Virus record (IMG/VR): IMGVR_UViG_3300010286_000001
Direction: 5' to 3' (one strand)
DNA length: 42,533 nt
Source: a virus
Below the pieces are notes generated by a model. That model ran no database searches, was not told where the DNA came from, and was given only the letters and a program-made list of their open reading frames with translations. The position numbers and the translations under genes were made by a program. Within the stretch, counting starts at the first letter, position 1, and each line of letters opens with the position of its first letter. Positions 138-40,598 of the stretch are shown here, one piece after another.

Positions 138-1166
138 ATGACTCCTGAGCGGATACTTGAAGCGCATGGCCTGAAGGTATCTGAGTGGGAAGTAATAAGC
201 TATAAAAACAATTTCTGGAATAGCCAGGTCGCGGGTGGCGTTAAGCAAATTAGCTATCAGTCTAAACTGACCGCCCGCCCAAAGCGGAAGGGATTAGACT
301 TTTCGGAAATAGACAAACACTTCGCAGAGCTTGAGCGCAAGCGATTTGTGCCGCCAGTAATAAAGCCGATGCTTGGCGATTTGATGGCCGAAGTGAACAT
401 CGCGGATTTGCATCTTGGGAAGCTCTGCTGGCATGGCGATACTCCAGAAAACTATGACTATAAGATTGCAAAAGAGGTATTTTTCAAGATAATCGGCGAG
501 GCCGTAGAGGAACTTAGAGGAAAGCCGATTGAATACATTACCTTTGTATGGACAAACGACTTCTTCAACAGCGACACGATTGACAAGACGACAACCGCTG
601 GGACTCGGCAGGATACGGATGTTAGATGGCAAAAGCTGTTCAATGTCGGTGTTGAGATGCTCGTAAGGGCTGTTGAGCAGCTGAGCGAAATATCTCCAGT
701 CAAAATATTCTATACGCGGTCAAACCACGATGAAGTGAATGGCTATATGGCTCTCAAGTACCTTGAGGCGTGGTTTAGGAACGACCCGAACGTATCCGTA
801 AACATCGACGCATACCCGCGGAAATATCAACTTTATGGCAATACGCTTATTGGTTATTGCCACGGCGACAAGGAAGAGTCTCGCGGCACAAAAGAAAAGG
901 CTTCGCGTCTTGCGTCGTTAATGCCAATTGAGGCTGCCAGCCTGTGGGGACAGGCCAAGTACAGGGAAATGCACGCCGCACATCTACATGGAGAACAGAT
1001 GATCCAGGAAATCAATGGCGTTATTGTGCGGCGAATTTCTAGCCCGACTGCGGCTGATACATACCACACTGAACGTGGGTATTTGGGCAACGTCCGAAAA
1101 GCACAAGTATTTATCTATGATAAAGAACGCGGGTTAAAACAGGTGATTAATATACCCGTTCAATAA
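138..1166 (+). CDS. Calcineurin-like metallophosphoesterase-like protein in the post-portal slot. The ORF is open upstream to base 3 and continues from 42272 across the circular junction.
   Basis: Ordered motifs NIADLHLG (DxH), TNDFFNSD (GDxxD-like), RSNHDE (GNHD/E), GYCHGD (H), AAHLHGE (GHxH-like). There is no stop between 42267 and 137 in this frame once the contig is circularised. Confidence 0.6.
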   Translation: MTPERILEAHGLKVSEWEVISYKNNFWNSQVAGGVKQISYQSKLTARPKRKGLDFSEIDKHFAELERKRFVPPVIKPMLGDLMAEVNIADLHLGKLCWHGDTPENYDYKIAKEVFFKIIGEAVEELRGKPIEYITFVWTNDFFNSDTIDKTTTAGTRQDTDVRWQKLFNVGVEMLVRAVEQLSEISPVKIFYTRSNHDEVNGYMALKYLEAWFRNDPNVSVNIDAYPRKYQLYGNTLIGYCHGDKEESRGTKEKASRLASLMPIEAASLWGQAKYREMHAAHLHGEQMIQEINGVIVRRISSPTAADTYHTERGYLGNVRKAQVFIYDKERGLKQVINIPVQ

Positions 1167-1362
1167 GCGCCGAGGTCGGAAACGGTTCCCGACGCACCTG
1201 TTGAGGGTACTTGAGATGATGGATACACCGCGGAGGACGGGACAGGCAGCCGTCACGCCCAAGAGGTCTTAAGAGAGATGCATGAGCGCCACCATGCCCG
1301 CATTTGCAAAACATAGTTGCAATTATTGCAAGCAAAATTGCAAAGTATACTGACGGAGTGTG

Positions 1363-6556: not shown

Positions 6557-9167
6557 AATACAGGCCAGTAGTTCAAGTGCGTCGAGCAGCATTGATGCGC
6601 TTGCCAATTCGCTGTCAAAGCTCCGCGCCGCCGTAAGAGGTGGTGTGGGGCTTACCACCGCTACGAAACAGTTCCGTGCATTTTCGGATGCTGTACGAAA
6701 CATACAGGCACCAACACGACAGATTGAAGAATTAGTTAGTTCGCTAAGGCCGCTCGAAACGATTGGTAAGGGCAATCTCGGTTATGCTCTCAATCAGCTC
6801 AAAAAGATACCCGAAATTACAAAAGCGTTGAGCAGCCAAGAGCTGTCTAAGTTTGCGTTGCAAATAAAGTTAGTGACAAAGTATGTTCAGCCGCTTGCTA
6901 CCGAGATGGAAAAAGTCGCACTTGGATTTAGCAAGCTACCTTCACAGATTCAAAAAGCCATAAACGCAAACGCAAAAATGATAGCCTCTAACCGAAAAAC
7001 AACAAAGTCATTCTTTTCATTAAGTCTAATTACAGCTAAAGTATATGCGCTCAAGAGGGTTGCAAACGTAGTAGCAAATTGGATTGACAACTCCAATGCT
7101 TACGTTGAAAACCTCAACTTGTTCACTATTGCTATGGGCAAATACACCGAATCCGCGAAGGCTTATGCTGAACAGGTACAGGAGCTTGTCGGCATAGACG
7201 CTTCTGAGTTTATGCGCTATCAGGGCGTGTTTATGAACATGGCAAAGGGCTTCGGCGTTGCGGAGGATAAGGCGTATAAAATGTCTAAGAACCTTACGCA
7301 ACTCGGTTATGACCTGGCATCGCTGTATAATGTCAAATTCGACGTAGCTATGGAGAAGCTTGAATCGGCTCTGTCGGGTCAGCCGCGTCCGATGCGTGAG
7401 TGGGGTTTCGATTTGTCCGAGGCTACGCTTAAGGCAAAGGCGCTGGCAATGGGTATCGAGAAGAACGTAGAGCTTATGTCACAGGCTGAAAAGGCTCAGA
7501 TACGTTACGTTCAGTTGCTTGAAACAGCGCAGAAAATCGGTGCGACCGGCGACCTTGCAAGAACGCTTAATACAACAGCTAATCAGTTGCGTGTATTAAA
7601 AGCGCAGGTTGATTTGTTAGGTAGGTCGCTTGGAAATATTTTTATACCTGTTCTAAATCAAATTCTTCCCTATGCAATAGCCTTTTTGAAGGTAATGAGG
7701 AACATTGCTAATACAATTGCGAATTTCTTTGGTTTCTCGTTGCCTGAAATAGATTATTCCGGCTTGGAAGAAATGGGCACGATTATCGACGAAGATACCG
7801 AGGCCGCAAAGGAATTAAAAAATGCCCTGTTGGGCATCGACGAGTTAAACATATTAAACGAAAAAAAGACAGGCTCTATTCTTGGTGACAGTATTGATAT
7901 TGACATACCTGAGTATGACTTTTTGAAAGAAATAGCGCAAAGTAATTCAAATTTATTAGTCGAAAAACTGCAAAAACCGTTTGAAAAAATTCTTGAGATA
8001 GTAACCGCTATTGGAATTGCCCTTCTCGGCTGGAAGTTTGCAAACTCATTTATGGATTCAATCACCAAACTTCAAAAGTTTTTTGATTCGGTGAAAAGCA
8101 CATCTCTTATAAGTTCACTAAGTAAGATTGGTGGCTCTTTGCTCACAATCGCCGGATTAGCCGCTACGATTTATGGAATTATTGATTCCATTGTTAATGG
8201 AGTACAGTGGGGTAATTTAGCATTTATGATTGGCGGCGTTGCAGTTACCGTAGGTGGTCTTGCGCTTGCTTTCGGAGCAACAGCGGCGCAGGTTGGCTTG
8301 GTTGTTGGTGGCCTTGTCTTGCTTACTGTTGCGTTTATTGACATAACAAAGAACGGCTTAAATCTCCAAAACACATTACTCCTTATAGCCGGAACATTCT
8401 CAACGGGTCTTGGAATGACACTACTTACAAACTCAACCATTCCTCTTCTTATTGCCGCATTTGTCCTCCTGTCGGCTGGTATTGTTGACATTGTAAACAA
8501 TGGTGTAACGCTCGAAAACTCGCTTCTTGTATTGAGCGGAATTATGCTTGGCACTCTTACGCTGGCTATCAAGAATATCATGGCTGGTATGGTTTCATTA
8601 GGCGTTACGATAGGGCTTGTTGGTCTTGCGGCGACATCTCTTGTGGGGTCATTCCTTTACATTTCATCTGTTTGGAGCCAAATGTCAGGTCTTGAAAAGG
8701 CTATTACATTATTTACTGGTTTGGCTTCTGCCGCTCTTGCCGCCGCCCTTGCAATTGCTGTGTTCCACGCTTCTTGGACACAAGGTATCGCAGTAGCTAT
8801 AATCGTTGGTTCTTTGGCGGCACTTACTGCCGCGTTCGTTGCTGTCAAAAACAATGTGGACAAAGTGGCAAGCGGAGGCGCTGCGCCAGGGGTTGGTAAT
8901 GGTTTTGCCTCTACATCTGGGGCAATAAGCGGAAACTACACTCCGCAATACCAAACCTCTACATATGGTAATGTAGCGACTTCACAAAATCAGTATCAGG
9001 CTTATGCACAACAGTCCTCTGCGGATTCAAAAGAAATAATTCGCTTGCTAACTGTAATTGCAAATAAAGACCCGAATCTCTATATGGATGGACAAAAAGT
9101 GTCAGAAATTACTTATCCGTATTACGAACAGATTGGGGCGCGGCGTGGCTTAGGTTTAGTACGATAA
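6525..9167 (+). CDS. Tape measure protein with a long multi-TM hydrophobic central and C-terminal region
   Basis: 880 aa; helical N-terminal half, then Gly/Ala/Leu/Ile-rich segments; follows the G/GT pair. Confidence 0.9.
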   Translation: METTIDQLQIEIQASSSSASSSIDALANSLSKLRAAVRGGVGLTTATKQFRAFSDAVRNIQAPTRQIEELVSSLRPLETIGKGNLGYALNQLKKIPEITKALSSQELSKFALQIKLVTKYVQPLATEMEKVALGFSKLPSQIQKAINANAKMIASNRKTTKSFFSLSLITAKVYALKRVANVVANWIDNSNAYVENLNLFTIAMGKYTESAKAYAEQVQELVGIDASEFMRYQGVFMNMAKGFGVAEDKAYKMSKNLTQLGYDLASLYNVKFDVAMEKLESALSGQPRPMREWGFDLSEATLKAKALAMGIEKNVELMSQAEKAQIRYVQLLETAQKIGATGDLARTLNTTANQLRVLKAQVDLLGRSLGNIFIPVLNQILPYAIAFLKVMRNIANTIANFFGFSLPEIDYSGLEEMGTIIDEDTEAAKELKNALLGIDELNILNEKKTGSILGDSIDIDIPEYDFLKEIAQSNSNLLVEKLQKPFEKILEIVTAIGIALLGWKFANSFMDSITKLQKFFDSVKSTSLISSLSKIGGSLLTIAGLAATIYGIIDSIVNGVQWGNLAFMIGGVAVTVGGLALAFGATAAQVGLVVGGLVLLTVAFIDITKNGLNLQNTLLLIAGTFSTGLGMTLLTNSTIPLLIAAFVLLSAGIVDIVNNGVTLENSLLVLSGIMLGTLTLAIKNIMAGMVSLGVTIGLVGLAATSLVGSFLYISSVWSQMSGLEKAITLFTGLASAALAAALAIAVFHASWTQGIAVAIIVGSLAALTAAFVAVKNNVDKVASGGAAPGVGNGFASTSGAISGNYTPQYQTSTYGNVATSQNQYQAYAQQSSADSKEIIRLLTVIANKDPNLYMDGQKVSEITYPYYEQIGARRGLGLVR

Positions 9168-14268: not shown

Positions 14269-15498
14269 ATGACCACCTATATAAAACCGACTAAAATACA
14301 AATTTACGTCAACTCCGGGCGCAAGACAATGGCGCAGGTCAAGGCTGAAACAGGCTGTACGCATATAATCAACGGCGGCTATTTTAACATGAGCACATTT
14401 GAAGCGGTTTGTGTGCTGATAGCGGATGGCAAAACCTATGCTTACGAATGGAACGGTCGAGGGTATTGTTTCGACACCATGCCGCCTGTCTTGCGGTGGA
14501 GCACCAGGGAAGATAAGAATTTTATCTACGGCGTTCGTTTAGTGGAAAACGGACAAGCCGTCGTTCCGCTTGACTACAATGCCGCATGGGGCGGGGCGAA
14601 ACGTAAGACGGCGATGGGCGTGATGCCGGACGGTAGGATATGGCTTTACTGTTCCGACGACCTCACAACGCCCGAACAGTTACAGCAGATTGCTCTTGCT
14701 TCGGGGGTAGACAGCGCAATCATGCTCGATGGCGGCGGCTCGACACAGGGCGATTTCAACGGGCAGACCGTAACGAGCGACAGGATTGTGCATAATTTCA
14801 TCTGCTTCTGGGCGGAGGAAGATAGCAAGAGCGGTGACGACATTGAAATCAGACAGTCATTCCTTACGAATAACGATTGCTACAAAGAAGGCAAAACCAT
14901 AACGCCTAAAGGAATAATGGTACATTCTACGGGTGCGAACAATCCGAGCCTAAGCCGATTCCTGCCCGGCGATGAATTAATTGGCTACAATAAGTACAAC
15001 AACCACTGGAATCAACCCGGATTGAGCGTATGCGTCCACGCCCTTATCGGCAAAGACAAAAATGGAAACGTAAGGATATACCAAACCTTACCGTGGAATA
15101 TGCGAGGATGGCACGCTGGCGGTTCTGCCAATGACACGCACATCGGCTTTGAAATCTGCGAGGACGGACTAACTGACCCTGTATATTTCAATGCTGTCTA
15201 CAATGCCGCAGTTAACCTGTGCGTGCATCTTTGCAAGACGCAGGGGATTAGCCCCGACAACATAGTTTGTCACTCCGAGGGCTACAAACTCGGTATAGCG
15301 TCCAATCATGCGGATGTAATGCATTGGTTTCCGAAGCATGGTAAGACAATGGACGATTTCCGCGCCGACGTAAGGGACAAGCTATCGGCACAGACCGCAC
15401 CCACCTCCCTTACGCAGGAGCAGTTCAATGAAATGTTCGACATAGCCATGAAAGAATGGCTCTCTAAAAACTCCTTCAGACTGGAGGTTATCAAATGA
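14269..15498 (+). CDS. Two-domain endolysin: phosphodiester-glycosidase (NAGPA/DUF2233)-like N-domain plus Amidase_2/PGRP-type N-acetylmuramoyl-L-alanine amidase
   Basis: N-domain motifs IINGGYFN and AIMLDGGGSTQ. C-domain motifs IMVHSTGANNPS and GWHAGGSANDTHIGFEICED. The ORF track gives GTG 14260, but ATG 14269 has the better RBS spacing. Confidence 0.85.
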   Translation: MTTYIKPTKIQIYVNSGRKTMAQVKAETGCTHIINGGYFNMSTFEAVCVLIADGKTYAYEWNGRGYCFDTMPPVLRWSTREDKNFIYGVRLVENGQAVVPLDYNAAWGGAKRKTAMGVMPDGRIWLYCSDDLTTPEQLQQIALASGVDSAIMLDGGGSTQGDFNGQTVTSDRIVHNFICFWAEEDSKSGDDIEIRQSFLTNNDCYKEGKTITPKGIMVHSTGANNPSLSRFLPGDELIGYNKYNNHWNQPGLSVCVHALIGKDKNGNVRIYQTLPWNMRGWHAGGSANDTHIGFEICEDGLTDPVYFNAVYNAAVNLCVHLCKTQGISPDNIVCHSEGYKLGIASNHADVMHWFPKHGKTMDDFRADVRDKLSAQTAPTSLTQEQFNEMFDIAMKEWLSKNSFRLEVIK

Positions 15499-16427: not shown

Positions 16428-17003
16428 TTAATTATTTTTCAGTATCGCGTTCGCGGCGTCAACCATTTCTTTTGTGATGATTCCCGGGACAAATCCAAAG
16501 CCACCCTCGTTGTTGATATCGTTGTATCTTTTCTTCCAAGCTTCGGCCTGAGCTTCGGTCATGAGGGAGCCGTCCCTGTTGCGGACGGTAGTCTCGGCGG
16601 CCTTGAGGACCTTCTCAGCGTATGCTATCTTCTGTGCCTTTTCTTCGGCGGCCCTAGCAGCTTCAGCTTCTTTTGCCTCCTCGGACTTTCCAGCTTCGAT
16701 TACTTCGCTCAAGAACTTTCCGATTATCTCAGCGCGGTCCTCGCGGAATGCGATTTTTTCAATACCCCAGATTCGCTTAAGACCGTTGCCAATGTCGATG
16801 ATTTTCCAGAAAGCAATATTCCAGCTGCTGTCGACTTTTTTGCCGTCGACGTAGACTTCGAGCATTGCTTCGACCTTTTCCTTCTTACCGACGTTTACCT
16901 TCCAACCGTCGGCGTCGACAATGTCATCAACCATTGTAATCTTGCATTCTGTTCTAAGCTCGATTTCGTTTCCTTTCGCTCCGGTCCATTTCAGTGTCTT
17001 CAT
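16428..17003 (-). CDS. Hypothetical protein (first gene of the moron pair); start moved to ATG 17003
   Basis: MKTLKWTGAKG... is preceded by aaaggggaaaacgaag. The ORF-track start at 17114 lies upstream of the predicted promoter, so it is unlikely. Confidence 0.6.
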   Translation of the reverse strand: MKTLKWTGAKGNEIELRTECKITMVDDIVDADGWKVNVGKKEKVEAMLEVYVDGKKVDSSWNIAFWKIIDIGNGLKRIWGIEKIAFREDRAEIIGKFLSEVIEAGKSEEAKEAEAARAAEEKAQKIAYAEKVLKAAETTVRNRDGSLMTEAQAEAWKKRYNDINNEGGFGFVPGIITKEMVDAANAILKNN

Positions 17004-17036
17004 CTTCGTTTTCCCCTTTCCCTTATCTTCGTGTTC

Positions 17037-17065
17037 ATTATAACATAGACTACGCGCGATGTCAA
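17037..17065 (-). promoter_or_regulatory. Perfect consensus sigma-70/sigma-A promoter TTGACA-17-TATAAT driving 17003..15979
   Basis: The reverse complement reads TTGACAtcgcgcgtagtctatgtTATAAT. Confidence 0.7.
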
Positions 17066-17148
17066 TAGGAAAATTAAATATTTTTGAAAATATTTTTAGA
17101 TTTTCTATGGGCATAAAGATAGCCGGAGGAATAGTCCTCCGGCTTTTT

Positions 17149-17446: not shown

Positions 17447-17468
17447 TACCGCCAATTTACCGCCAATC
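17447..17468. repeat. Two tandem TACCGCCAAT(T/C) boxes (candidate arm-type sites, right of the core)
   Basis: taccgccaatt at 17447-17457 and taccgccaatc at 17458-17468, abutting the int stop codon. Confidence 0.6.
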
Positions 17469-18552
17469 AATACTCCAGCAGTTTTATCTTCTCTTTTAGG
17501 CCGTCTATATCGACGTGCGTGTAAATCTGTGTTGTAGATATATTTTTATGACCGAGCAACAATTGTACGCTGCGTAAATCTGCACCGCCTTTTAACAAGT
17601 ATGAAGCAAATGAATGCCTGCATTTGTGGGAGGTCTTGCGCTCTACCTCTTTCTTTTCTTTATTTGGATCCGCTGATTGTTCTAAGAATTTATTCAAGTC
17701 CTTGAAAAACTTATCGTAGCGATACCTAAAGGTGCTTAACGTCATGCGCTTGCCCGATTCATCGCTAATAACAAAATCGCCTTTGCGAGGTATGCTATTA
17801 AGCAGGTTCTTTAAATCATCACTTATTGGTATTATTCGCTCTGCTTTGCCTTTTGTTGTCTCCGATATTCTCTCGCCCTTCTCTGTGCGCTGCACGGCGC
17901 TGTGAACGCGAATAATTGAGTTGGGTATATCTATGTCCTCCCAGCGTAACGCAAGCGCCTCGCCGCGTCGCAGCCCTGTATAGAACAGTAATTTTATAAC
18001 GTAGCTAAATGGGTGCTCAAAGTTTAATATTTCCTTAATGGTTTCCGGCTTGAATATCTCAACCTCTTTTTGCGCAGGCTTTTTGAGCTTGATATTTTCG
18101 GCAACATTTTTCCTGCAATAACCGTTTTCAACCGCACTGCGCAACATCGCAGACAAGATAAAACGGACTTTCTTTTTTCGACTGAAAGAATAGTCGCTCA
18201 AGGAATTAATAACAGCCTGTATGTCAATCGGCTTTAACTGGTCTAGCTGCTTGTCGCCAATAATCGGAATAATGTTTTTCTCGATGATTACCTTATATTC
18301 GTAATACGTCCCCCATGCTACGGCCGGGGGCTTTTTATATGTGTTGAGCCAATAAAGCGCCCATGCTGAGGTTTGTTTGCGCTTTATTGCTTCTTCTTTA
18401 CCCCTTTTAACCCACTCGTCATATTTAGCCTTCGCCTCTTTAGGGGTTTTGCCATAAAATGAACGCCGCCCAGTTTCGTCGCGCTTTGAATATTCAATTA
18501 AGCCGCTTTTATGAACGCGATAACAACCGTCCCCGTAAGTGCGCTTTTTCAT
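17467..18552 (-). CDS. int: Tyrosine integrase
   Basis: 361 aa; [16 protein letters not shown] and [39 protein letters not shown] contain the R..H-x-x-R..Y catalytic signature. Confidence 0.9.
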
Positions 18553-19571: not shown

Positions 19572-19997
19572 TTGAGAAGCGGAAAGTATTATCGCGGAAT
19601 CAAAGTCAATGGCCGCAAGATTGATTATCACCGCTATCTCATGGAGCAAAAACTCGGCAGACCGTTAAGCCGCTATGAGGTTGTTCACCACAAGGACGGC
19701 AATAAGCAAAACAACAGCATCGACAATCTTGAATTAAAGACTTTACCAGAGCACTCCAGGGAACACATGACGAGCCGGAAAATGAAGGCTGAGACGAAAG
19801 CGAGGATGAGCGCATCACGCAAGGGAAAGCCGAATTATGCCTGCCGCAAACTCAATGCTTCACAGCTCGCCTTTGCCCAAAAGATGCTTGACAATGGAAT
19901 GACATACCGAACTGTAGCACGACATTTTGGTGTAGATCATACAACAATTATGCGATACTGCCGCAAACCAAATCAGCAAGAGCGGGAAACAGCGTGA
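19572..19997 (+). CDS. HNH endonuclease with a C-terminal HTH
   Basis: VVHHKDGNKQNNSIDNLELKTLPEHSREH (HNH_3 pattern), then MTYRTVARHFGVDHTTIMRY. Confidence 0.8.
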   Translation: MRSGKYYRGIKVNGRKIDYHRYLMEQKLGRPLSRYEVVHHKDGNKQNNSIDNLELKTLPEHSREHMTSRKMKAETKARMSASRKGKPNYACRKLNASQLAFAQKMLDNGMTYRTVARHFGVDHTTIMRYCRKPNQQERETA

Positions 19998-33756: not shown

Positions 33757-34380
33757 ATGACTGATGCAACCCCTAAGAAACGAGGCAGACCGCCGAAAAA
33801 GATTGAAGCAGACACAGCCGAAGAAGCTGTTGTAAAAGATGTTGTTCTAAAAGGTCGCGGCGGCATAAACAACTTTGGAAACAATATGAAAGAGTTAGTA
33901 AAAACCGAGGCCCAACGCGCGATAGCAAAACAACTTCTCACCGAAACGCTTAACGCCTATCAACAGCCAAAGGTTAAGAACGACGAAGAACTCGCACAGC
34001 GAATAAACGACTATTTCTCATATTGCGCCGACACAGGACAGATACCCACGGTCGAGGAAATGGCGCTGTCTACAGGCTACGCTGTATCGACTGTTTGGGA
34101 TTGGGAACATGGGAGGCGGCAGGGATTCAGCCCAGAGACCGCCGAGATTATAAAAAAAGCCAAGAGTTTTATGCAAACTTTTGACGCAAAATTGGTCACT
34201 ACGGGCGCACTCAACTTCCTTACATACTGCTTCAGAGCCAAGAACTACTACGGCATGGTCGAGCGTTCGGAGGTCGTTCTCACCCCCAACCAACCCCTCG
34301 GCTCCGATGCCGACCCCGCAACTATCGCGCAGAAGTACAAGCAGTTGCCGGATGTAACTATTGATGCGGAGGGCGAGTAA
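33757..34380 (+). CDS. terS: Terminase small subunit (gp3-package-like)
   Basis: Basic N-terminus KKRGRPPKK, then INDYFSYCADTGQIPTVEEMALSTGYAVSTVWDWEHG and LNFLTYCFRAKNYYGMVERSE, typical of this TerS family. Confidence 0.75.
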   Translation: MTDATPKKRGRPPKKIEADTAEEAVVKDVVLKGRGGINNFGNNMKELVKTEAQRAIAKQLLTETLNAYQQPKVKNDEELAQRINDYFSYCADTGQIPTVEEMALSTGYAVSTVWDWEHGRRQGFSPETAEIIKKAKSFMQTFDAKLVTTGALNFLTYCFRAKNYYGMVERSEVVLTPNQPLGSDADPATIAQKYKQLPDVTIDAEGE

Positions 34381-34542
34381 CTTTTATCCAGCTTTTCTAC
34401 AACTTTCGCGCCAAAACATCTGCAACTTTTCCGCAACTATGTAACTTTTATCCGCAATTTCAAGTAACTTTTCTGGGCTTGTCCAACTTTTATGTAACTT
34501 TTCTCTGTAACTTTGCTCCAAGCTTGTCCAACTTTTATGTAA
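34377..34542. repeat. Cluster of GTAACTTT(T) direct repeats and two 22-bp repeats directly after terS (candidate pac / TerS-binding region or island boundary)
   Basis: gtaacttttatcc at 34377 and 34441. gtaacttttct at 34464 and 34493. gtaactttg at 34507. gcttgtccaacttttatgtaac at 34477 and 34521. Confidence 0.7.
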
Positions 34543-34815
34543 CGAATCCTCGTCCCCTACGCTCCTGCTCCAGCACGAAAAAACCGCCTTGGCCTCCGTC
34601 GTTGGAAGCTGGGGCGGTCTGTTTTATCCCCTACGCTCAATCGTGGGGCGCGGGGCCGCGTCGTTTCGTTCTGAGCCGCTACGTTTCGTTTTGGGCGCGT
34701 TTTGTGCGTACCCTATATTGATATACCCTAGCATAGTAAAATCGTTTATACGGCGTTCTGGCGCATTATACGGCTATGTGCTATAAAACGGCCCTGCTCC
34801 ACGTTGCGCGTAGCA

Positions 34816-34851
34816 GGACAAAAAGAAGCGCCCCGGATATTGCCGGAGCGC
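34816..34851 (-). terminator. Rho-independent terminator closing the antisense island operon
   Basis: The minus strand reads gcgctccgg-caatat-ccggggcgc followed by ttcttttt, 7 nt after the peptide stop. Confidence 0.6.
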
Positions 34852-34857
34852 CTGGCG

Positions 34858-34926
34858 TTATTGTTTTTTGACGAGCGCCGCCAATACGAAGACGACGAAC
34901 AACGGTATTATTAGTAGTAGCTGCAT
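34858..34926 (-). CDS. 22-aa hydrophobic peptide MQLLLIIPLFVVFVLAALVKKQ (type I toxin-like or small membrane peptide)
   Basis: A single TM-length hydrophobic run with a basic tail, immediately followed by a terminator. The weakness is the nearest SD (gggggaga), which is about 24 nt upstream. Confidence 0.35.
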   Translation of the reverse strand: MQLLLIIPLFVVFVLAALVKKQ

Positions 34927-34967
34927 ACATTACACGCTTTGCAGTCGTACTCTCCCCCCTATCAATA

Positions 34968-35147
34968 TCAATACACCATTACCAGATCGTCTATGTCGTA
35001 CCCGTCGCCGTTCTGGAAATCTTCCTCTGTGCGCATGATTTTAATGTCCATTAGCGCGCAGGCTTCCTCGATTATCATGCTACGGTTGGTGATAATTTCG
35101 GCCAGGACTTCGCCGGTTGACTTCTGGATGATTTTCATGTTCTTCAT
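34968..35147 (-). CDS. Hypothetical 59-aa acidic protein (below the ORF-track cutoff)
   Basis: RBS gggagaaagga; MKNMKIIQKSTGEVLAEIITNRSMIIEEACALMDIKIMRTEEDFQNGDGYDIDDLVMVY. Confidence 0.5.
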   Translation of the reverse strand: MKNMKIIQKSTGEVLAEIITNRSMIIEEACALMDIKIMRTEEDFQNGDGYDIDDLVMVY

Positions 35148-35211
35148 TCCTTTCTCCCGCCTTTAGCCGGGCGGGGCGGCGTGTCAGTTATTGTCATTAT
35201 ACTCTAGGCCG

Positions 35212-35484
35212 TCAGTCGCGCCAAAGCTCTAGGCTGTCGGCCGATGGTAGCCATTCAAGGCCCCATATTTCGTCGCCCCACGCGATCGCAATCGATTCAA
35301 TGGCGCTGGCTAGGCCGCCTCCATATGCGCCACTGACCTCTGTGTCCTCCTCGGTGCCATTTGGCAGCAGGCCCACGATGTGCCAGCGGGTGCCATAGTC
35401 CGGGTGGTGCTCCTGCTCGGCCATCAATATGATGCGTCCTACGTCTCCGTCGCCCTCGATTGTTGCTAGATACCGTTTCTCCAT
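35212..35484 (-). CDS. Hypothetical acidic protein (island gene)
   Basis: 90 aa; RBS aaaaaggagg. Confidence 0.6.
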   Translation of the reverse strand: MEKRYLATIEGDGDVGRIILMAEQEHHPDYGTRWHIVGLLPNGTEEDTEVSGAYGGGLASAIESIAIAWGDEIWGLEWLPSADSLELWRD

Positions 35485-35524
35485 TGTTCAAATCCTCCTT
35501 TTTTGATGGATAATGTCAACTACG

Positions 35525-35603
35525 TTATATTTGACAACCTGCCCGGCGGTATACCGGGCAACGCTTGCGGCTTAATGTCCTATTTATAGCCGCCGCAACG
35601 GCT
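35525..35603. repeat. 79-bp perfect intergenic repeat, copy 1
   Basis: ttatatttgacaacctgcccggcggtataccgggcaacgcttgcggcttaatgtcctatttatagccgccgcaacggct is identical to 36471-36549. Confidence 0.95.
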
Positions 35604-36277
35604 CAATCCATGAGTTTGTAATCGGTCACTATATGTTCGCCGTCATACAAATAGATTTCCAATTCGTCCGGCTTGCAACCGTAACAGTCCGCTAAATATT
35701 TGCGTAATGTTTCGCCTTCTTGCCACCGAATAGTGTCGGGAACATAATATCCGTAACAATCGTCAATACAAAATTCTGTCCCACAACCTAACCAGAATTT
35801 GCCTATTTCGTCTATATGTTCCGGTGTATAATGCTTGGTACAATACACCACATCGCAATAATCCCCTTGAGAATATCCGGTGAATGATTTTACTTCCCAT
35901 TTTTCGCCGGTCGTGATTGTCAGAAATTCTGCAATAAAGCCCGGATCGTAAGGATTCGCATACTCCGTCCATTCTTTCAATAAGTGACATCTGCGGCTTG
36001 TATATGGAATAGCGTTATCTTCCATAACTTCTTTATATGTTGTGTATCCGTTTGTCCATTTGTCGCTTACATCGCGAAAACCGTCAATAATAGCTTTTGC
36101 TTTTTCTTCAATTTCTTCGTATTCTTCTATATTGAAGCCGCCATACCTTCTTCTGTCCCCTGGTACGATGTAAACAGCGCAATTCTCACCTCCCGCGCTT
36201 TTCAGTCCGTCGTCGTCGAAATAATAACTAAAATCCACATGGTTCGGATTAACTTCTTTGGCTATTATCTTTTTCAT
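35603..36277 (-). CDS. Hypothetical acidic Tyr/Cys-rich protein (island gene, 224 aa)
   Basis: ORF track; the start overlaps the upstream gene end; I do not recognise a family. Confidence 0.7.
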   Translation of the reverse strand: MKKIIAKEVNPNHVDFSYYFDDDGLKSAGGENCAVYIVPGDRRRYGGFNIEEYEEIEEKAKAIIDGFRDVSDKWTNGYTTYKEVMEDNAIPYTSRRCHLLKEWTEYANPYDPGFIAEFLTITTGEKWEVKSFTGYSQGDYCDVVYCTKHYTPEHIDEIGKFWLGCGTEFCIDDCYGYYVPDTIRWQEGETLRKYLADCYGCKPDELEIYLYDGEHIVTDYKLMD

Positions 36278-36458
36278 GGTTAAACCTCCTTTTTTCCCTA
36301 TGCTTTTCTAGACGGTAACACCCGCCGCCGTTCTCCCTGTACTCTTTCAATCTTTGTTTAGCTTCTTTGAGTGTGTACTCACTACATTCACACTCCCAAC
36401 CATAGCCGTAATTACCCATAATGTCCCAGCGGTCAACCGTTTTTCTAACGTATGCCAT
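36249..36458 (-). CDS. Hypothetical small protein with a WDIMGNYGYGWECE motif (island gene)
   Basis: 69 aa; RBS aaggagg. Confidence 0.6.
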   Translation of the reverse strand: MAYVRKTVDRWDIMGNYGYGWECECSEYTLKEAKQRLKEYRENGGGCYRLEKHREKRRFNHEKDNSQRS

Positions 36459-36470
36459 TATTACACCTCC

Positions 36471-36549
36471 TTATATTTGACAACCTGCCCGGCGGTATAC
36501 CGGGCAACGCTTGCGGCTTAATGTCCTATTTATAGCCGCCGCAACGGCT
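36471..36549. repeat. 79-bp perfect intergenic repeat, copy 2
   Basis: Identical to 35525-35603. As in copy 1, it begins on the minus strand at the last base of the preceding gene's stop codon. Confidence 0.95.
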
Positions 36550-36917
36550 TAAACGGTTTTTTCCTTCTTGATGATATAATCCGCGCCGTTAAAGATAAAA
36601 TGTATTTCCCCGCTGAGCGGATGCTCTCCGCAATAACGGACGGTGTGCGCAAGCTCTCCATTTTCAAAGAATAAATAGTCATTAGCTTCAATGTTTTCAA
36701 TTATTGGTTCATCGTTCATAAGGTAATAATCATATTGTGCTTCATAAGTCTTCTGCAGTTCTTCCGGCGTGTCATATTCTGCTATCCCAGTTATAAAATC
36801 ATCCGGCGACATAAGGCTTAACATAAATTCCCGGTGTGCTTCAATGGCTTTTCTTTTCGCTTTTTCGCTAAGCTCTGAGAATGAATAAAGTTTAATAGTA
36901 ATTCCCGTATCTATCAT
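36549..36917 (-). CDS. Hypothetical acidic protein (island gene, 122 aa)
   Basis: RBS aaggagg; KLYSFSELSEKAKRKAIEAHREF N-terminus. Confidence 0.7.
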   Translation of the reverse strand: MIDTGITIKLYSFSELSEKAKRKAIEAHREFMLSLMSPDDFITGIAEYDTPEELQKTYEAQYDYYLMNDEPIIENIEANDYLFFENGELAHTVRYCGEHPLSGEIHFIFNGADYIIKKEKTV

Positions 36918-37001
36918 TCTTTTAACCTCCTTATTTAGCTTGTCGGGCTATCGGAGCTTGTGACCGTCTGCCCGGCCGCATTACCGGCCCGATGCGGGCC
37001 G

Positions 37002-37241
37002 TCACTCTGCGATTTCTCCCCGCTGCCGGTGCTGTTTGTGCTCGTCGCATATTTGGCGGCATATCTCCAGCGCGCCCCTGCCTGCATACATGCCGTCAAG
37101 GGCGATCCATTCCCCTTTTTTGCCATCGGGGAGGAAATAGGGAGTCCAACCTTGATAATATGTGTATCTCCCCGCGATTGCATATCGTCCATCTGTGGAC
37201 ATGCGGAGCTGCGCGTGGATTTTTTCCCATTTCAGTTTCAT
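37002..37241 (-). CDS. Hypothetical protein (island gene, 79 aa)
   Basis: ATGA overlap with the upstream gene stop. Confidence 0.55.
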   Translation of the reverse strand: MKLKWEKIHAQLRMSTDGRYAIAGRYTYYQGWTPYFLPDGKKGEWIALDGMYAGRGALEICRQICDEHKQHRQRGEIAE

Positions 37242-37666
37242 TTGTCTTGCTCCTTCCTTCCATCACTCTGCTTTTCCGCAATGGCTTTTAATATTTCGGC
37301 GTTTGTCTCTTCGTTCGCTTGATTGTTCCAGTTTTCCTCCCATGCTTCGATGCCGTCCATCATTTCAAATAAAACCTCTTCGCCGATAATGTAGTAGAGC
37401 ATGTTAACGAGTTTTTCCGGGTCGCTTAGGTCTGTATAGATTTCGCCGAAGTTGTCTTTTTCGTAGGTCTGTACTTTTTCTATGGCTTCGAATACGTCGT
37501 ACTCCCGCAGGGCTTCTTTAGCCCGATGTGTGCCGATGATATAATAGTCCGTGTTAAACACTTCGTTGTGTAGGTCGCAATAATACCCGGTATAACCATC
37601 TTCTAACGCTTCTATTATGGCGGCTCTTGCTTCTTCTCTCATTTTCTGCTCTTTGTGGTTTGTCAT
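37238..37666 (-). CDS. Hypothetical acidic protein, first gene of the island operon (start moved to ATG 37666)
   Basis: MTNHKEQKMREE... is preceded by agggagaaag. The ORF-track start at 37732 lies upstream of the predicted -10 box. Confidence 0.65.
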   Translation of the reverse strand: MTNHKEQKMREEARAAIIEALEDGYTGYYCDLHNEVFNTDYYIIGTHRAKEALREYDVFEAIEKVQTYEKDNFGEIYTDLSDPEKLVNMLYYIIGEEVLFEMMDGIEAWEENWNNQANEETNAEILKAIAEKQSDGRKEQDK

Positions 37667-37722
37667 TGTTCTTTCTCCCTTCGTTCCCGCCGTGCGGCGG
37701 TCGTTTTTTTGTTTGCGGTTAT

Positions 37723-37751
37723 AGTATAACACACTTACAGTTAATTGTCAA
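37723..37751 (-). promoter_or_regulatory. Island operon promoter TTGACA-17-TATACT
   Basis: The reverse complement reads TTGACAattaactgtaagtgtgtTATACT, which matches the recombinase promoter at 23 of 29 positions. Confidence 0.65.
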
Positions 37752-37807
37752 TAGTTTTTGTAAAATAATTTCTTGATTTTTTGTAATTATCGAGTTATTG
37801 TTGCCCG

Positions 37808-37880
37808 CCGGCCTGCCTGGCCTGCCTGGCCTCCTGGCCTGCCTGGCCTCCTGGCCTGCCTGGCCTGCCTGGCCTCCCCC
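37808..37880. repeat. GC-rich tandem repeat of alternating 9-mers GGCCTGCCT and 8-mers GGCCTCCT (about 8 units)
   Basis: ggcctgcct ggcctgcct ggcctcct ggcctgcct ggcctcct ggcctgcct ggcctgcct ggcctcccccc, embedded in otherwise AT-rich promoter DNA. Confidence 0.9.
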
Positions 37881-37967
37881 CGTGGGGGATATGCCGCCGC
37901 CCCTGCCGGGCCGGTTAGGCGTTTAACTACCGAAAATAAGAAAAAGGGGTAAAATTACAAAAAACCC

Positions 37968-37996
37968 TTGACAATTACAATAACGTGTGTTATATT
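37968..37996 (+). promoter_or_regulatory. Recombinase promoter TTGACA-17-TATATT
   Basis: TTGACAattacaataacgtgtgtTATATT, then RBS aaaggagg and ATG 38026. Confidence 0.65.
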
Positions 37997-38025
37997 GTTT
38001 TTGTAATCAAAAGGAGGCGCGAGAT

Positions 38026-38778
38026 ATGAATCAAGCAATCGGATATTTGAGGGTATCGACCGATGGTCAGGTCGGCGAAGATAAATACGGGCTGGACGCT
38101 CAGCGGGAGCAGATTAAGCTGTACGCTTTGGCGAACGGATATGAGATAGTTGAGTGGGCGAAGGACGAGGGGTATAGCGGGGCCACGCTGGACAGGCCTG
38201 CGTTGAACGAGTTGCTGTACGGCGATATAGCGAACCCGCCCATTTCGGCTGTGATTGTGGCTAAGAATGACAGAATTAGCCGAGATATGGAGCAGTATTT
38301 TTATGTCAAATACTCGCTCAAGAAGAAGAACATTGATTTAAAGAGTGTTAGCGAGGATTTCGGGCAGCTTGGGGTGTTCGCGCATATTATGGAGAGCCTT
38401 GCAATGTTTATTGCGGAGCAGGAGCGGATCAACATTGCGAAACGCACCAGTGGCGGGCGCAAAATCAAGGCTGCCGCGGGCGGATACAGTGGCGGACGCG
38501 CGCCGTATGGGTATAAGGTGGAGAACGGCCAATATGTTATAATGCCCGAGGAGGCCGAGATGGTGCGCAAGGTATTCGAGATGCTGGATAATGGCGCAAC
38601 GCTGGTAGATACGGCCGAGTGGCTGAATGATAATGGATATAGGACTCGCAGTGGCAAGAAGTTTTATGCGTCGCATATAAGGGCGATCAAGGCAAATCGC
38701 CCGCTGTATGAAGGCATGTATAAGTATGGGGATATGGACTGGGTGCGCGGTGTGCACGAACCGATATTAAAGGGGTGA
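38026..38778 (+). CDS. Truncated large-serine-recombinase-type protein (resolvase catalytic domain plus recombinase domain; no zinc-ribbon or coiled-coil domain)
   Basis: MNQAIGYLRVSTDGQ (catalytic Ser), VIVAKNDRISRD, then GGRAPYGYKV...Y.G...W..GVHEPIL, after which the ORF stops. 251 aa from ATG 38026. Confidence 0.8.
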   Translation: MNQAIGYLRVSTDGQVGEDKYGLDAQREQIKLYALANGYEIVEWAKDEGYSGATLDRPALNELLYGDIANPPISAVIVAKNDRISRDMEQYFYVKYSLKKKNIDLKSVSEDFGQLGVFAHIMESLAMFIAEQERINIAKRTSGGRKIKAAAGGYSGGRAPYGYKVENGQYVIMPEEAEMVRKVFEMLDNGATLVDTAEWLNDNGYRTRSGKKFYASHIRAIKANRPLYEGMYKYGDMDWVRGVHEPILKG

Positions 38779-38939
38779 TTAATATTACTGCTTTTGCAGG
38801 GCATATATTCAATGCCATTTTTCGCTCGATTATATGAGACTCAGAGAGGGTCTATAACAAGTTTTCTGAGATATTAAATATATATTAAATCTATTCGAGC
38901 GCCAAGAGCGCCTTTCCACAAGGAGGGGCGTTCTTTTTT

Positions 38940-40598
38940 ATGGATATAGAGCAGACGTTAAAGGCGATACGAGCCTTCATAGACAAAAAACCGGAGTTTG
39001 AAGCGTATCAGGACTACTTCGATATGCTTCGGGCGCTGGGTGAGACTGACCGTGCGAAGGCTGATGAGCACAATTTGTGGCTCCGAAGGGAGACTACGCG
39101 GCGCTGCAAAGAGGCCACAGACCCGAACGTGGTGACGGACTTCTACAATTTGACCTACAAGACATACCTGTACGGTGCGCAGACCTCGTTTGACGACTAC
39201 ATGGTAGCTGTCGAATGGGATAGGGAGCCAAAGGCGAAGTTTTGGGTTCCGCGCCGGAAGGTGCTGGAGGGGCAGCACAAAATAGCCAGTAAGATACAGG
39301 CGTTTTTGGACGATGAAAATGCGCTGTTTTTGGCGTTCTCGATGCCTCCTGGCACCGGAAAGACGACGCTGATTAAGTTTTTGCTGTCGTACATCTACGG
39401 GCAGTATCCGAACAGCGCGAACATGTATGTCAGCTACGCAGACGCGATGGTGAAGATGGTTTACGACGGCGTGCAATCCATCTTGACTGATAATTTCGAG
39501 TACAAGTTCAAGGATGTATTCCCCGAAGTGCCTGCTCCTGTATGCTCTGCGGAGTATTACACTATTTCAGCGCGTAGGAAAGGCGATTTCCCGACGTTGG
39601 GGCTTATTTCCCTGGGCGGTTCGGTTACTGGCCGTACCCGTGCGAACAAACTGCTGATTACTGACGACCTTGTGAAGAACAAGGAGGTCGCCCGTAGCCC
39701 CGAACGGCTGAATACGCTGTTTGAGGACTACAAGGCGACGATTACGACTCGTACAATCGGCGACAATGTGAAGCAGATTATGCTTGGCACGATTTGGTCG
39801 GCACATGACCCGATTTCGCGCATGAAGAGCGAACACAATGGAGACCCGCGGTACATCTTCATCGCGCTGCCTGTTCGTGACGAGGACGGGCATAGCAATT
39901 TCAATTACGACCACCCGGACAGATATACGGATGAGCGCATCGCTGAGCTTGAGGCTACACTTGATCCAGTTGATTTCTCGTGCCTATATATGCAGAAAGG
40001 CATTGAAAAAGAGGGCTTGGCATTCCCGGCAGATGCCTTGGATTACTATGAAGGCGAGCTGCCGGATGGAGAGCCTGACAATATCATTTTCTATGCTGAC
40101 GTGGCATTCGGCGGAGGCGATAGCTTTTCAATGCCGATTGCCTACATTTACGGAAAAGACGTGTACATACACGATGTAATATTCGACCGTGGCGACAAAA
40201 CAGTTACTATGCCGCGAGTAGTTGAGAAAATCCTGAAGCACAAGATCAGGATTGGTCAGTTTGAGGCGAACAATGGCGGTGATTTCTATTGCGAGGAGGT
40301 AAACCGCATTCTCCGCGAAAAGCACAATTACTCGATGAACCTCGGTAGCAAGAAGGCTCCGTCGAATATGAGCAAATTGTCAAGGATTGAACAGCACGCC
40401 CCGGCAATTCGGCGATTCCACTTCAGAAGCAGGAATTGCAGGGATGCTGACTACAAGAAATTCATGGACGAGCTGACCTCGTTCAGTTTCACAGCGAAGA
40501 ACCTGCATGACGACGCGGCAGACTCCCTCGCGGGGCTTGCGGACAAACTCTATCATGGCACATTATCTTGGGTTGAAATCGGCAAACGCCCGTGGTGA
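38940..40598 (+). CDS. terL: Terminase large subunit
   Basis: Walker A SMPPGTGKTT, Walker B LLITDDLV, C-terminal nuclease motifs ADVAFGGGDSFS and HDDAADSL. Confidence 0.9.
   Translation: MDIEQTLKAIRAFIDKKPEFEAYQDYFDMLRALGETDRAKADEHNLWLRRETTRRCKEATDPNVVTDFYNLTYKTYLYGAQTSFDDYMVAVEWDREPKAKFWVPRRKVLEGQHKIASKIQAFLDDENALFLAFSMPPGTGKTTLIKFLLSYIYGQYPNSANMYVSYADAMVKMVYDGVQSILTDNFEYKFKDVFPEVPAPVCSAEYYTISARRKGDFPTLGLISLGGSVTGRTRANKLLITDDLVKNKEVARSPERLNTLFEDYKATITTRTIGDNVKQIMLGTIWSAHDPISRMKSEHNGDPRYIFIALPVRDEDGHSNFNYDHPDRYTDERIAELEATLDPVDFSCLYMQKGIEKEGLAFPADALDYYEGELPDGEPDNIIFYADVAFGGGDSFSMPIAYIYGKDVYIHDVIFDRGDKTVTMPRVVEKILKHKIRIGQFEANNGGDFYCEEVNRILREKHNYSMNLGSKKAPSNMSKLSRIEQHAPAIRRFHFRSRNCRDADYKKFMDELTSFSFTAKNLHDDAADSLAGLADKLYHGTLSWVEIGKRPW

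Follow-up and report, generated by a model that had tools for sequence, protein, structure and literature searches.

We analysed the region between the terminase genes terS and terL in IMG/VR virus record IMGVR_UViG_3300010286_000001, a stretch of 42,533 nt that we refer to in its full length as the window. The window is a circular assembly of a 42-kb temperate siphovirus-type phage, with ends that overlap by 123 nt, and it encodes its own tyrosine integrase (17467-18552) and a helix-turn-helix (HTH) repressor. A gap of 4559 bp separates the small terminase gene terS (33757..34380, plus strand; PF16677 GP3_package at 3e-07, phrog_606 at 6.7e-10) from the large terminase gene terL (38940..40598, plus strand; phrog_38 at 1.1e-63). 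This gap holds a leftward operon of eight small open reading frames (ORFs), in which we identified three predicted self-cleaving ribozymes, and a divergent serine recombinase gene. An earlier interpretation made from the letters alone, hereafter the sequence-only reading, had located terS, terL, a promoter, eight leftward ORFs, a terminator and the recombinase, and our analysis recovered each of them at the same coordinates.

Architecture of the antisense operon

The operon starts at a sigma-70-type promoter on the minus strand (37751..37723), which in a consensus scan matched 11 of 12 positions (TTGACA, a 17-nt spacer and TATACT, with the TG of an extended -10 element). It ends at an intrinsic terminator (34853..34826, minus strand), where an 11-bp stem with 8 GC pairs is followed by the U-run CTTTTTGT (folding free energy, dG, -19.8; z -3.3). 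Both elements had been proposed before and were confirmed by the scan and by folding. ORFs A to G, which lie exactly where they had been predicted on the minus strand, are each preceded by a GGAGG-type ribosome-binding site (RBS). ORF A (37238..37666) encodes an acidic protein of 142 amino acids (aa) that is all-helical in its model, and its stop codon is overlapped (ATGA) by the start of ORF B (37002..37241), which encodes a basic protein of 79 aa. ORF C (36549..36917) encodes an acidic protein of 122 aa. ORF D (36249..36458; 69 aa, basic) overlaps by 29 nt the start of ORF E (35603..36277), whose acidic product of 224 aa is rich in Cys, Tyr and Trp. ORFs F (35212..35484; 90 aa) and G (34968..35147; 59 aa) both encode acidic proteins, and the eighth, ORF H (34926..34858), is a 22-aa hydrophobic peptide with no RBS. 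The frame and the hydrophobicity of ORF H are kept in contig L001, a close relative, despite about 12 nucleotide changes.

Predicted self-cleaving ribozymes at the gene junctions

In the spacers between the ORFs we found three ribozyme elements that the sequence-only reading had not noticed, all on the strand of the ORFs. Two of these match the full pistol model (RF02679, positions 1-68) at 67.6 bits against a gathering score of 34.5: pistol 1 at 35603..35533 and pistol 2 at 36549..36479 (minus strand), with predicted cuts at 35538/35537 and 36484/36483, respectively. The third matches twister-P5 (RF02684; 37011..36951, minus strand) at 52.6 bits against a gathering score of 37.6, with a predicted cut at 36983/36982. 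These cut sites were placed by homology to mapped ones, namely G53-U54 of the env25 pistol and a U-A step in twister (PMC6154101). Together with its flanks, each pistol is one copy of an 82-nt direct repeat (35525-35606 and 36471-36552; 99% identical), and a third repeat element related to this pair lies at 36961-36988, in the twister region.

Pistol 1 shares its first base with the end of the ORF E stop codon, pistol 2 stands in the same relation to ORF C, and the first 10 nt of the twister are the last codons and the stop of ORF B. Each ribozyme therefore abuts or overlaps the preceding ORF, its first base preceding the final stop-codon base by 0-9 nt, and the next start codon follows 21-42 nt beyond its end. 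The same placement with respect to stop and start codons was found in five related contigs (L001, L006, L010, L031 and L036). The 5' segment of the twister, AUCGCAGAGUGA, encodes a terminal Ile-Ala-Glu-stop in three different genes (window 37002-37011; L001 at about 7645-7654; L006 at about 2170-2179), which indicates that the ribozyme module supplies its own stop codon.

The pistol copies of the window have AGCC/GGCU as helix P1 and a 6-bp pseudoknot of the P1 loop with the P2-P3 linker (UUGCGG/CCGCAA). In an alignment of 27 pistols, which includes the window's own copies, 97.8% of the P1 and pseudoknot cells are paired, all ten of ten pairs have changed on both sides, and none of 500 shuffles was as good. 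The core nucleotides AUAAAUA, AUUA, GC..AGCGU and GG-UU, the last with the G-U cleavage step, are all present. For the twister we searched with the exact core pattern, having set aside a model with a poor RNAalifold structure. The conserved core GCAGAG..UAAUGC..GUCNCAAGC is present, and the strict pattern is expected 0 times by chance. On these sequence features we assign the three elements to the pistol and twister classes and predict that they cleave themselves.

Viral contigs commonly have more than one pistol at a locus, or a pistol paired with a twister. Pistols also adjoin GOLLD RNAs in three contigs (L024, 94-912; L041, 10630-11471; L046, 7361-8202) and sit inside a tRNA array in a fourth (L043, 6108-8497), so that they are not confined to the junctions of protein genes.

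The ribozymes might have no role in operon expression and be selfish or relic RNA motifs, or mere patches of DNA homology for recombination. The near-identity of the two pistols over 82 nt would fit such an origin, as would the recurrence of the same sequence in four other contigs (L005, L010, L036 and L037) and the many related loci that do without ribozymes. However, all the catalytic-core positions and helices are intact, and the compensatory changes that keep the pairing across the 27 pistols imply selection on the RNA fold. The position of the ribozymes relative to stop codons and RBSs is fixed as well. Finally, equivalent junctions are filled by two unrelated ribozyme classes, which points to cleavage, and not to a specific DNA sequence, as the selected property. 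We regard inert ribozymes as very unlikely.

A conserved site with exchangeable cassettes

According to the sequence-only reading, terS and terL are normally adjacent and were split here by a self-contained island, completed by the recombinase, that is a candidate counter-defence or host-takeover (DNA-mimic) module or a mobile cassette. In its fullest form this would be an island that moves as a unit, with the recombinase as its mobility gene. The relatives do not bear out this view of the site. Every relative examined has a filled gap between the two genes, and the order is kept in more than 40 related contigs. About 30 contigs have terS, a gap of 1.8-4 kb, the recombinase, another 0.1-1.1 kb, terL and the portal gene, and seven related loci (L006, L008, L011, L015, L020, L031 and L036) show the order terS (where the contig reaches it), gap, resolvase, terL and portal. 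The gap carries antisense ORFs in 8 of the 12 sampled loci of the recombinase family, and a Pfam search of ten gap genes from related loci returned an FtsK-like ATPase and GP88 only. The contig L006 (terL 77% identical) has antisense ORFs with a twister, then the resolvase, three further ORFs and terL, and Clostridium phage Maintenon has a gap of 2.65 kb with small ORFs and tRNAs. Against the GenBank phages, neither a megablast of the terS-terL region nor a tblastn with ORF E gave a match.

Closer relatives show how the content of the gap varies. The same island is present at 99.8-100% identity, as far as the contigs reach, in L089, L090/L094 and L091, and L093 shares the recombinase-terL side at that level. 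L001 and L002, with terL 99% identical, have terS, G, F, twister and A, lack ORFs B-E, and carry a recombinase module made of an 86-aa protein and a 202-aa resolvase. The L001 copies of ORFs F and G are 98% and 90% identical to those of the window. The flanks of L001 are 99% identical, and its junctions fall within the final codons of ORF A and at the ORF F RBS; homology resumes at 38895, a common homology breakpoint that lies beside a hairpin preceding terL. From position 36555 of the window upward L092 matches it at 99.6% identity, and the point of divergence is precisely the stop codon of ORF C. Past ORF C, L092 has a twister-like element, which was read by eye only and deviates in the last hairpin, then an ORF of about 50 aa and a 161-aa ORF that is followed by a core-perfect twister. 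The cassette breakpoints between near-identical strains thus fall at ribozyme and RBS boundaries.

Single genes were also found far from this phage. ORFs A, C and E occur at 70-89% nucleotide identity in otherwise unrelated backbones, among them an ORF C copy in L015 that is 89% identical, which supports the sequence-only reading as far as individual genes are concerned. The pistol stretch is 98% identical to its copy in L010. This contig is a chromosomal islet beside spoIIE/tilS/ftsH with no terminase, in which ORF A, twister, ORF E and pistol lie divergent from a resolvase gene; L036 likewise has a twister, ORF E and a pistol in succession. In L005 (1-376; terL 78% identical) a pistol and then a 63-aa Cys-rich ORF lie directly upstream of terL and in its orientation, which indicates that cassette orientation at the site is not fixed.

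These results show that the region is a variable accessory ("moron"-type) locus between terS and terL that is standard for this temperate Bacillota phage group. They also show that the operon is assembled from exchangeable cassettes, each with an RBS, a single ORF or a pair of them and in many cases a self-cleaving ribozyme at the 3' end, in the order A+B-twister, C-pistol, D+E-pistol, F, G, H. The earlier description of an accessory unit that has a near-consensus promoter and a terminator of its own and runs opposite to the packaging genes stands, and we find that the content of this unit differs among near-identical phages. The notion of an island that moves as one block is not supported. 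The strain differences are single cassettes and never the whole block, and repeat searches found no convincing flanking repeats, inverted repeats or att-like ends around the operon. We rejected a mobile genomic island as a description of the locus on two grounds: there are no end repeats, and other backbones have single cassettes only.

The serine recombinase and the control region

The recombinase gene (38026..38778, plus strand) encodes 250 aa with the Resolvase (PF00239, 4e-28) and Recombinase (PF07508, 2.5e-12) domains, in agreement with the divergent serine recombinase recognised earlier. The protein covers positions 1-64 of the 102 of the Recombinase domain, has no zinc ribbon and matches positions 87-343 of the 651-position phrog_95 profile. 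Its length, its partial Recombinase domain and the missing zinc ribbon rule out a large serine recombinase or phage serine integrase (about 450-650 aa). The protein is identical in five assemblies. Homologues of 50-80% identity occur in 37 viral contigs; all 22 that were checked are 246-260 aa long, and most of the loci lie between terS and terL. The gene is therefore not truncated, as had been supposed, and a truncated serine-integrase pseudogene was ruled out by the same 22 lengths. In more than 40 contigs, terL has a serine recombinase gene a short distance before it. Given homologues of equal length at a conserved position, we conclude that the recombinase keeps a conserved place beside terL in this lineage and is not the mobility gene or any other part of a mobile island. 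Its position in dozens of contigs is of interest for packaging research. We also observed that phages with 99% identical terL have two recombinase modules at the same site, the 250-aa gene in the window (38026-38778) and the 86-aa and 202-aa resolvase module in L001 (9013-9878), with the break at 38895.

A second promoter, overlooked by the sequence-only reading, points rightward to the recombinase (37968..37996, plus strand; TTGACA, a 17-nt spacer and TATATT, with TG; 11 of 12 matches in the consensus scan). The two promoters are inverted near-copies, identical at 21 of 27 positions, and their shared 27-nt pattern occurs at these sites only (0 expected by chance); inverted promoter pairs of a similar kind are present in L010, L015 and L036. 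From its orientation and promoter, the sequence-only reading had concluded that the operon is expressed independently of the late genes. The near-twin promoter facing the recombinase-terL side weakens this case and suggests that the operon and that side are under shared control. Between the promoters lies a GC-rich tandem repeat (37803..37877; GGCCTGCCT; period 9/17/26, about 7.6 copies, Tandem Repeats Finder score 118-120; repeat family D1), and a GC-rich repeat of another kind stands at the corresponding place in L001.

The layout raises the question of whether the recombinase acts on the locus, either by capturing and shuffling cassettes in the manner of an integron or by inverting a promoter segment and so switching the operon on and off. 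Its gene is indeed divergent from a promoter-led array of promoterless cassettes, near-identical inverted arms flank a spacer of 130-220 nt beside the recombinase in the window, L010, L015 and L036, and the small ORFs of L011 are oppositely oriented relative to the recombinase. However, the arms are outward-facing promoters, which inversion of the spacer would not re-aim, and a single orientation was seen in four independent assemblies, a small sample. The operon as a whole has no flanking inverted repeats, and the cassette junctions fall at RNA elements and RBSs and not at a repeated DNA crossover site. Furthermore, phages that are 99% identical have two unrelated recombinase types here. We consider that such an activity has only a slim chance of being the explanation.

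Three further non-coding elements border the terminase genes. An array of YAACTTTT repeats (34378..34545; AAAAGTTR on the minus strand) lies just past the terS stop and holds seven of the nine genome-wide matches, as well as the direct-repeat families D6 and D9-D11. Three relatives (L006, L008 and L011) have short-repeat arrays of their own directly after terS, and we infer that the array is a candidate terS-binding or pac site. Beyond it, a hairpin with a U-run (34583..34627, plus strand; dG -26.5, z -2.45, then CUGUUUUAU) is a probable rightward terminator past terS. Directly before the terL start, a 14-bp stem with a U-run (38904..38935, plus strand; dG -23.4, z -4.0) holds the GGAGG of terL in its 3' arm, and the hairpin is kept with different stem sequences in five related contigs (L004, L005, L007, L008 and L050). 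It looks like a terminator and a translation gate for terL.

Proteins encoded by the operon

In the sequence-only reading most of the products were acidic and none belonged to a known family. The first statement holds for A, C, E, F and G, with isoelectric points (pI) of 4.3-4.6 (five of seven), and fails for B and D, which are basic (pI about 9). The second is nearly right: ORF A matches phrog_10208 (1e-37), itself a family of unknown function, and the only PHROGs matches among the ORFs are entries of this kind, for A and C. ORF A represents a very widespread and highly conserved family with 2974 homologues, of which the best 120 are 79-90% identical; in the genome collection it was found in five contigs of metagenome-assembled genomes only (three Bacillota, one unclassified "bacterium" and one candidate division WWE3). 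ORF C belongs to a family of proteins of about 100 aa, and none of its 208 matches in an exhaustive HMMER search has an informative domain; two long ones, RTX and cadherin repeat proteins, were set aside as compositional bias. ORF E represents a conserved family with 376 homologues, none of which has a Pfam domain. ORF F belongs to a rare family, for which 13 homologues were found.

Searches of Pfam and NCBIfam, ArdA, Ocr and KlcA/ArdB included, gave no match to ORFs A-G at E <= 0.1-0.5, and PADLOC returned nothing informative on the operon ORFs. Sequence and profile searches of the PDB with A, C and E gave no match. AlphaFold models of ORFs E and A reached mean confidences (pLDDT) of 87 and 86.6. 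The Foldseek comparison of these models, a check that had been suggested with the island proposal, gave no fold match in PDB or BFVD, with no hit at E < 0.04 or a TM score above 0.42. In the absence of a profile, PDB or fold match, a counter-defence or DNA-mimic role of the operon proteins is a guess from composition.

These results also bear on the mobile island proposed by the sequence-only reading. Small and acidic products (five of seven), an autonomous promoter and terminator, and genes that move between backbones are all what one would expect of it, and in L013 and L017 the ORF A homologues have early or accessory genes as neighbours, for example RadC/JAB and DUF932. Against it, besides the evidence from the site (terS and terL adjacent in none of the relatives examined, a recombinase that is as long as its family members and keeps its place in more than 40 contigs, no terminal repeats or att-like ends found, and differences that concern single cassettes), no ArdA, Ocr, KlcA or other Pfam, NCBIfam or PADLOC family was matched, neither modelled protein has a fold match, and the 79-90% identity of the best 120 ORF A homologues is unusual for arms-race proteins. 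Overall, we think it unlikely that the locus is a mobile island with such cargo.

The ORFs might instead encode ordinary accessory proteins of packaging or head assembly, given their location between terS and terL and the nearby candidate terS-binding repeats. However, they run antisense to the packaging genes under their own promoter and terminator, B-E are missing from a phage whose terminase and portal genes are 99% identical to those of the window, and A and E also occur in the terminase-free chromosomal islet of L010. In addition, no structural or packaging family was matched in Pfam or PHROGs, where an assignment to head-assembly families had been named as the outcome that would speak against the island. 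A role of this kind is extremely unlikely.

A model for the processing of the operon RNA

From the anatomy of the locus, the identity of its ribozymes, its synteny and the observed cassette variation, we infer that the operon RNA is cut and the cassettes thereby uncoupled. The explanation that we favour, with somewhat better than even confidence, is a variable accessory operon whose cassettes are separated by three ribozymes that cut the operon RNA. Transcription from the strong host-type promoter (37751..37723) would run leftward through the eight small ORFs to the terminator (34853..34826), and the ribozymes would cleave the polycistronic RNA during its synthesis into four pieces, A+B, C, D+E and F+G+H. 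Upstream pieces would carry at their 3' end a folded remnant of the ribozyme and a 2',3'-cyclic phosphate, and downstream pieces would start with a 5'-OH about 25-65 nt before the start codon. The stability and translation of each cassette would in this way be uncoupled from those of its neighbours, and cassettes could be swapped between phages while still being expressed. The near-identical ribozyme sequences would provide homology for such swaps. Pistol and twister ribozymes have been found near phage genes (PMC4604425), and bacterial twister and hammerhead ribozymes have been suggested, not proven, to process polycistronic mRNAs (PMC6765202), with which the uncoupling of cassettes proposed here agrees.

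Several observations count against this model. The promoter, the terminator and the ribozyme cut sites are predictions, and no ribozyme lies between ORFs F, G and H. No Rfam ribozyme was found at the equivalent loci of L011, L013, L015 and L017 (near ORF A or E homologues), nor near the ORF A or E homologue in L018, and 11 of 12 scanned loci of the recombinase family have no detectable ribozyme; RNA processing is thus no requirement of such loci. Profile, PDB and fold searches assigned no function to the operon proteins. In Bacillus, RNase J1 degrades the 5'-OH fragment left by glmS ribozyme cleavage, so that cleavage might lower, and not protect, downstream expression. The effect of cleavage on expression could go either way, and its direction is not predictable from our analysis.

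The model may be extended to a more general arrangement, in which the unit of RBS, ORF and 3' ribozyme is a true cassette and the terS-terL site is a collecting platform marked by the serine recombinase and the twin promoters. The locus would then be an analogue of an integron that is insulated at the RNA level, and the recombinase would capture cassettes or cyclise genomes next to pac. We consider this extension speculative and rather unlikely to hold.

Other elements in the window and in related contigs

In the head-gene region of the window we found a skipping-rope RNA (RF02924; 1226-1305, plus strand; 45.4 bits against a gathering score of 36.7) and a weaker tandem copy (1165-1224, plus strand; 26 bits), and L001 has the same pair at 14637-14777. 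No function of skipping-rope RNA is known in the literature (PMC5737381). A second moron-like unit lies next to the integrase (16428-17114, minus strand), with a 228-aa ORF that has no Pfam match, a perfect promoter (17065..17037; 12 of 12) and a bidirectional terminator (17121-17144). An HNH endonuclease gene (HNH_3, NUMOD3 and HTH; 19572-19997, plus strand) follows shortly after the region of the repressor and early promoter. Finally, a HEARO RNA (159.8 bits) lies beside an RRXRR/HNH (IscB-like) gene in a phage contig with an ORF A homologue (L018, 7961-8170; L017, 3055-3222).

Comparison with known systems

Phage P1 has Cre/lox near pac, and this site-specific recombinase could cyclise terminally redundant genomes. 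The present locus resembles it in having a site-specific recombinase gene close to the packaging genes and to a candidate pac region, and its enzyme could by analogy cyclise genomes too. Unlike Cre, that enzyme is a serine recombinase. Our literature searches found nothing relevant that ties recombinases or terminases to ribozymes.

Integron arrays share with the locus a recombinase gene that is divergent from one promoter, which drives exchangeable promoterless small ORFs with a structured element after each. They differ in that the enzyme here is a serine and not a tyrosine (IntI) recombinase, the structured elements are RNA ribozymes and not attC DNA sites, and a site resembling attI was not found. 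The likeness is one of layout only.

In RiboJ-type synthetic insulators and in glmS control through RNase J1, self-cleavage in a leader or an intercistronic spacer gives the message behind it a new 5' end and thereby alters what becomes of it. The cleavage predicted here may act similarly. In contrast to those systems, the ribozymes of the window are natural, judging from their sequence apparently unregulated, and located 3' of each cassette.

Phage morons of the lambdoid or HK97 type are alike in having an autonomous promoter and terminator between core genes, in varying among close relatives and in being dispensable for neighbouring core functions. The operon of the window likewise has its own predicted promoter and terminator around non-core genes, and its presence varies (L001 and L092 compared with the window). 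Unlike a typical moron, it is a multi-gene operon with predicted ribozyme processing inside, at a site that is conserved throughout the lineage.

Above all, the locus belongs to the known ribozyme-associated phage gene neighbourhoods (pistol, twister and hammerhead), which were reportedly described by Roth in 2014 and Weinberg in 2015, and it is a well-resolved case of them. As summarised in the literature (PMC4604425, PMC5737381, PMC6765202), these neighbourhoods have pistol and twister within a few kb, Bacillota phage DNA and small hypothetical genes, and several ribozymes per locus are common in them. The present case differs from the summaries in two respects, although the primary accounts may already describe part of each. 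The full context is available here, in a complete 42-kb temperate phage, and the ribozymes stand at the stop-codon/RBS junctions of one promoter-to-terminator operon, where strain variants show cassette turnover. What pistol and twister ribozymes do in bacteria and phages has been an open question from the time of their description (PMC6765202). If cleavage insulates or sets the expression of each cassette, this would explain why ribozymes travel with small phage genes and how mosaic accessory operons stay functional after shuffling. The locus offers a compact natural test bed, with a complete temperate phage, one operon, three ribozymes of two classes and strain variants that differ at the ribozyme junctions. 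Thus, while the ribozyme classes and their association with phages were already known, this locus makes their function directly testable.

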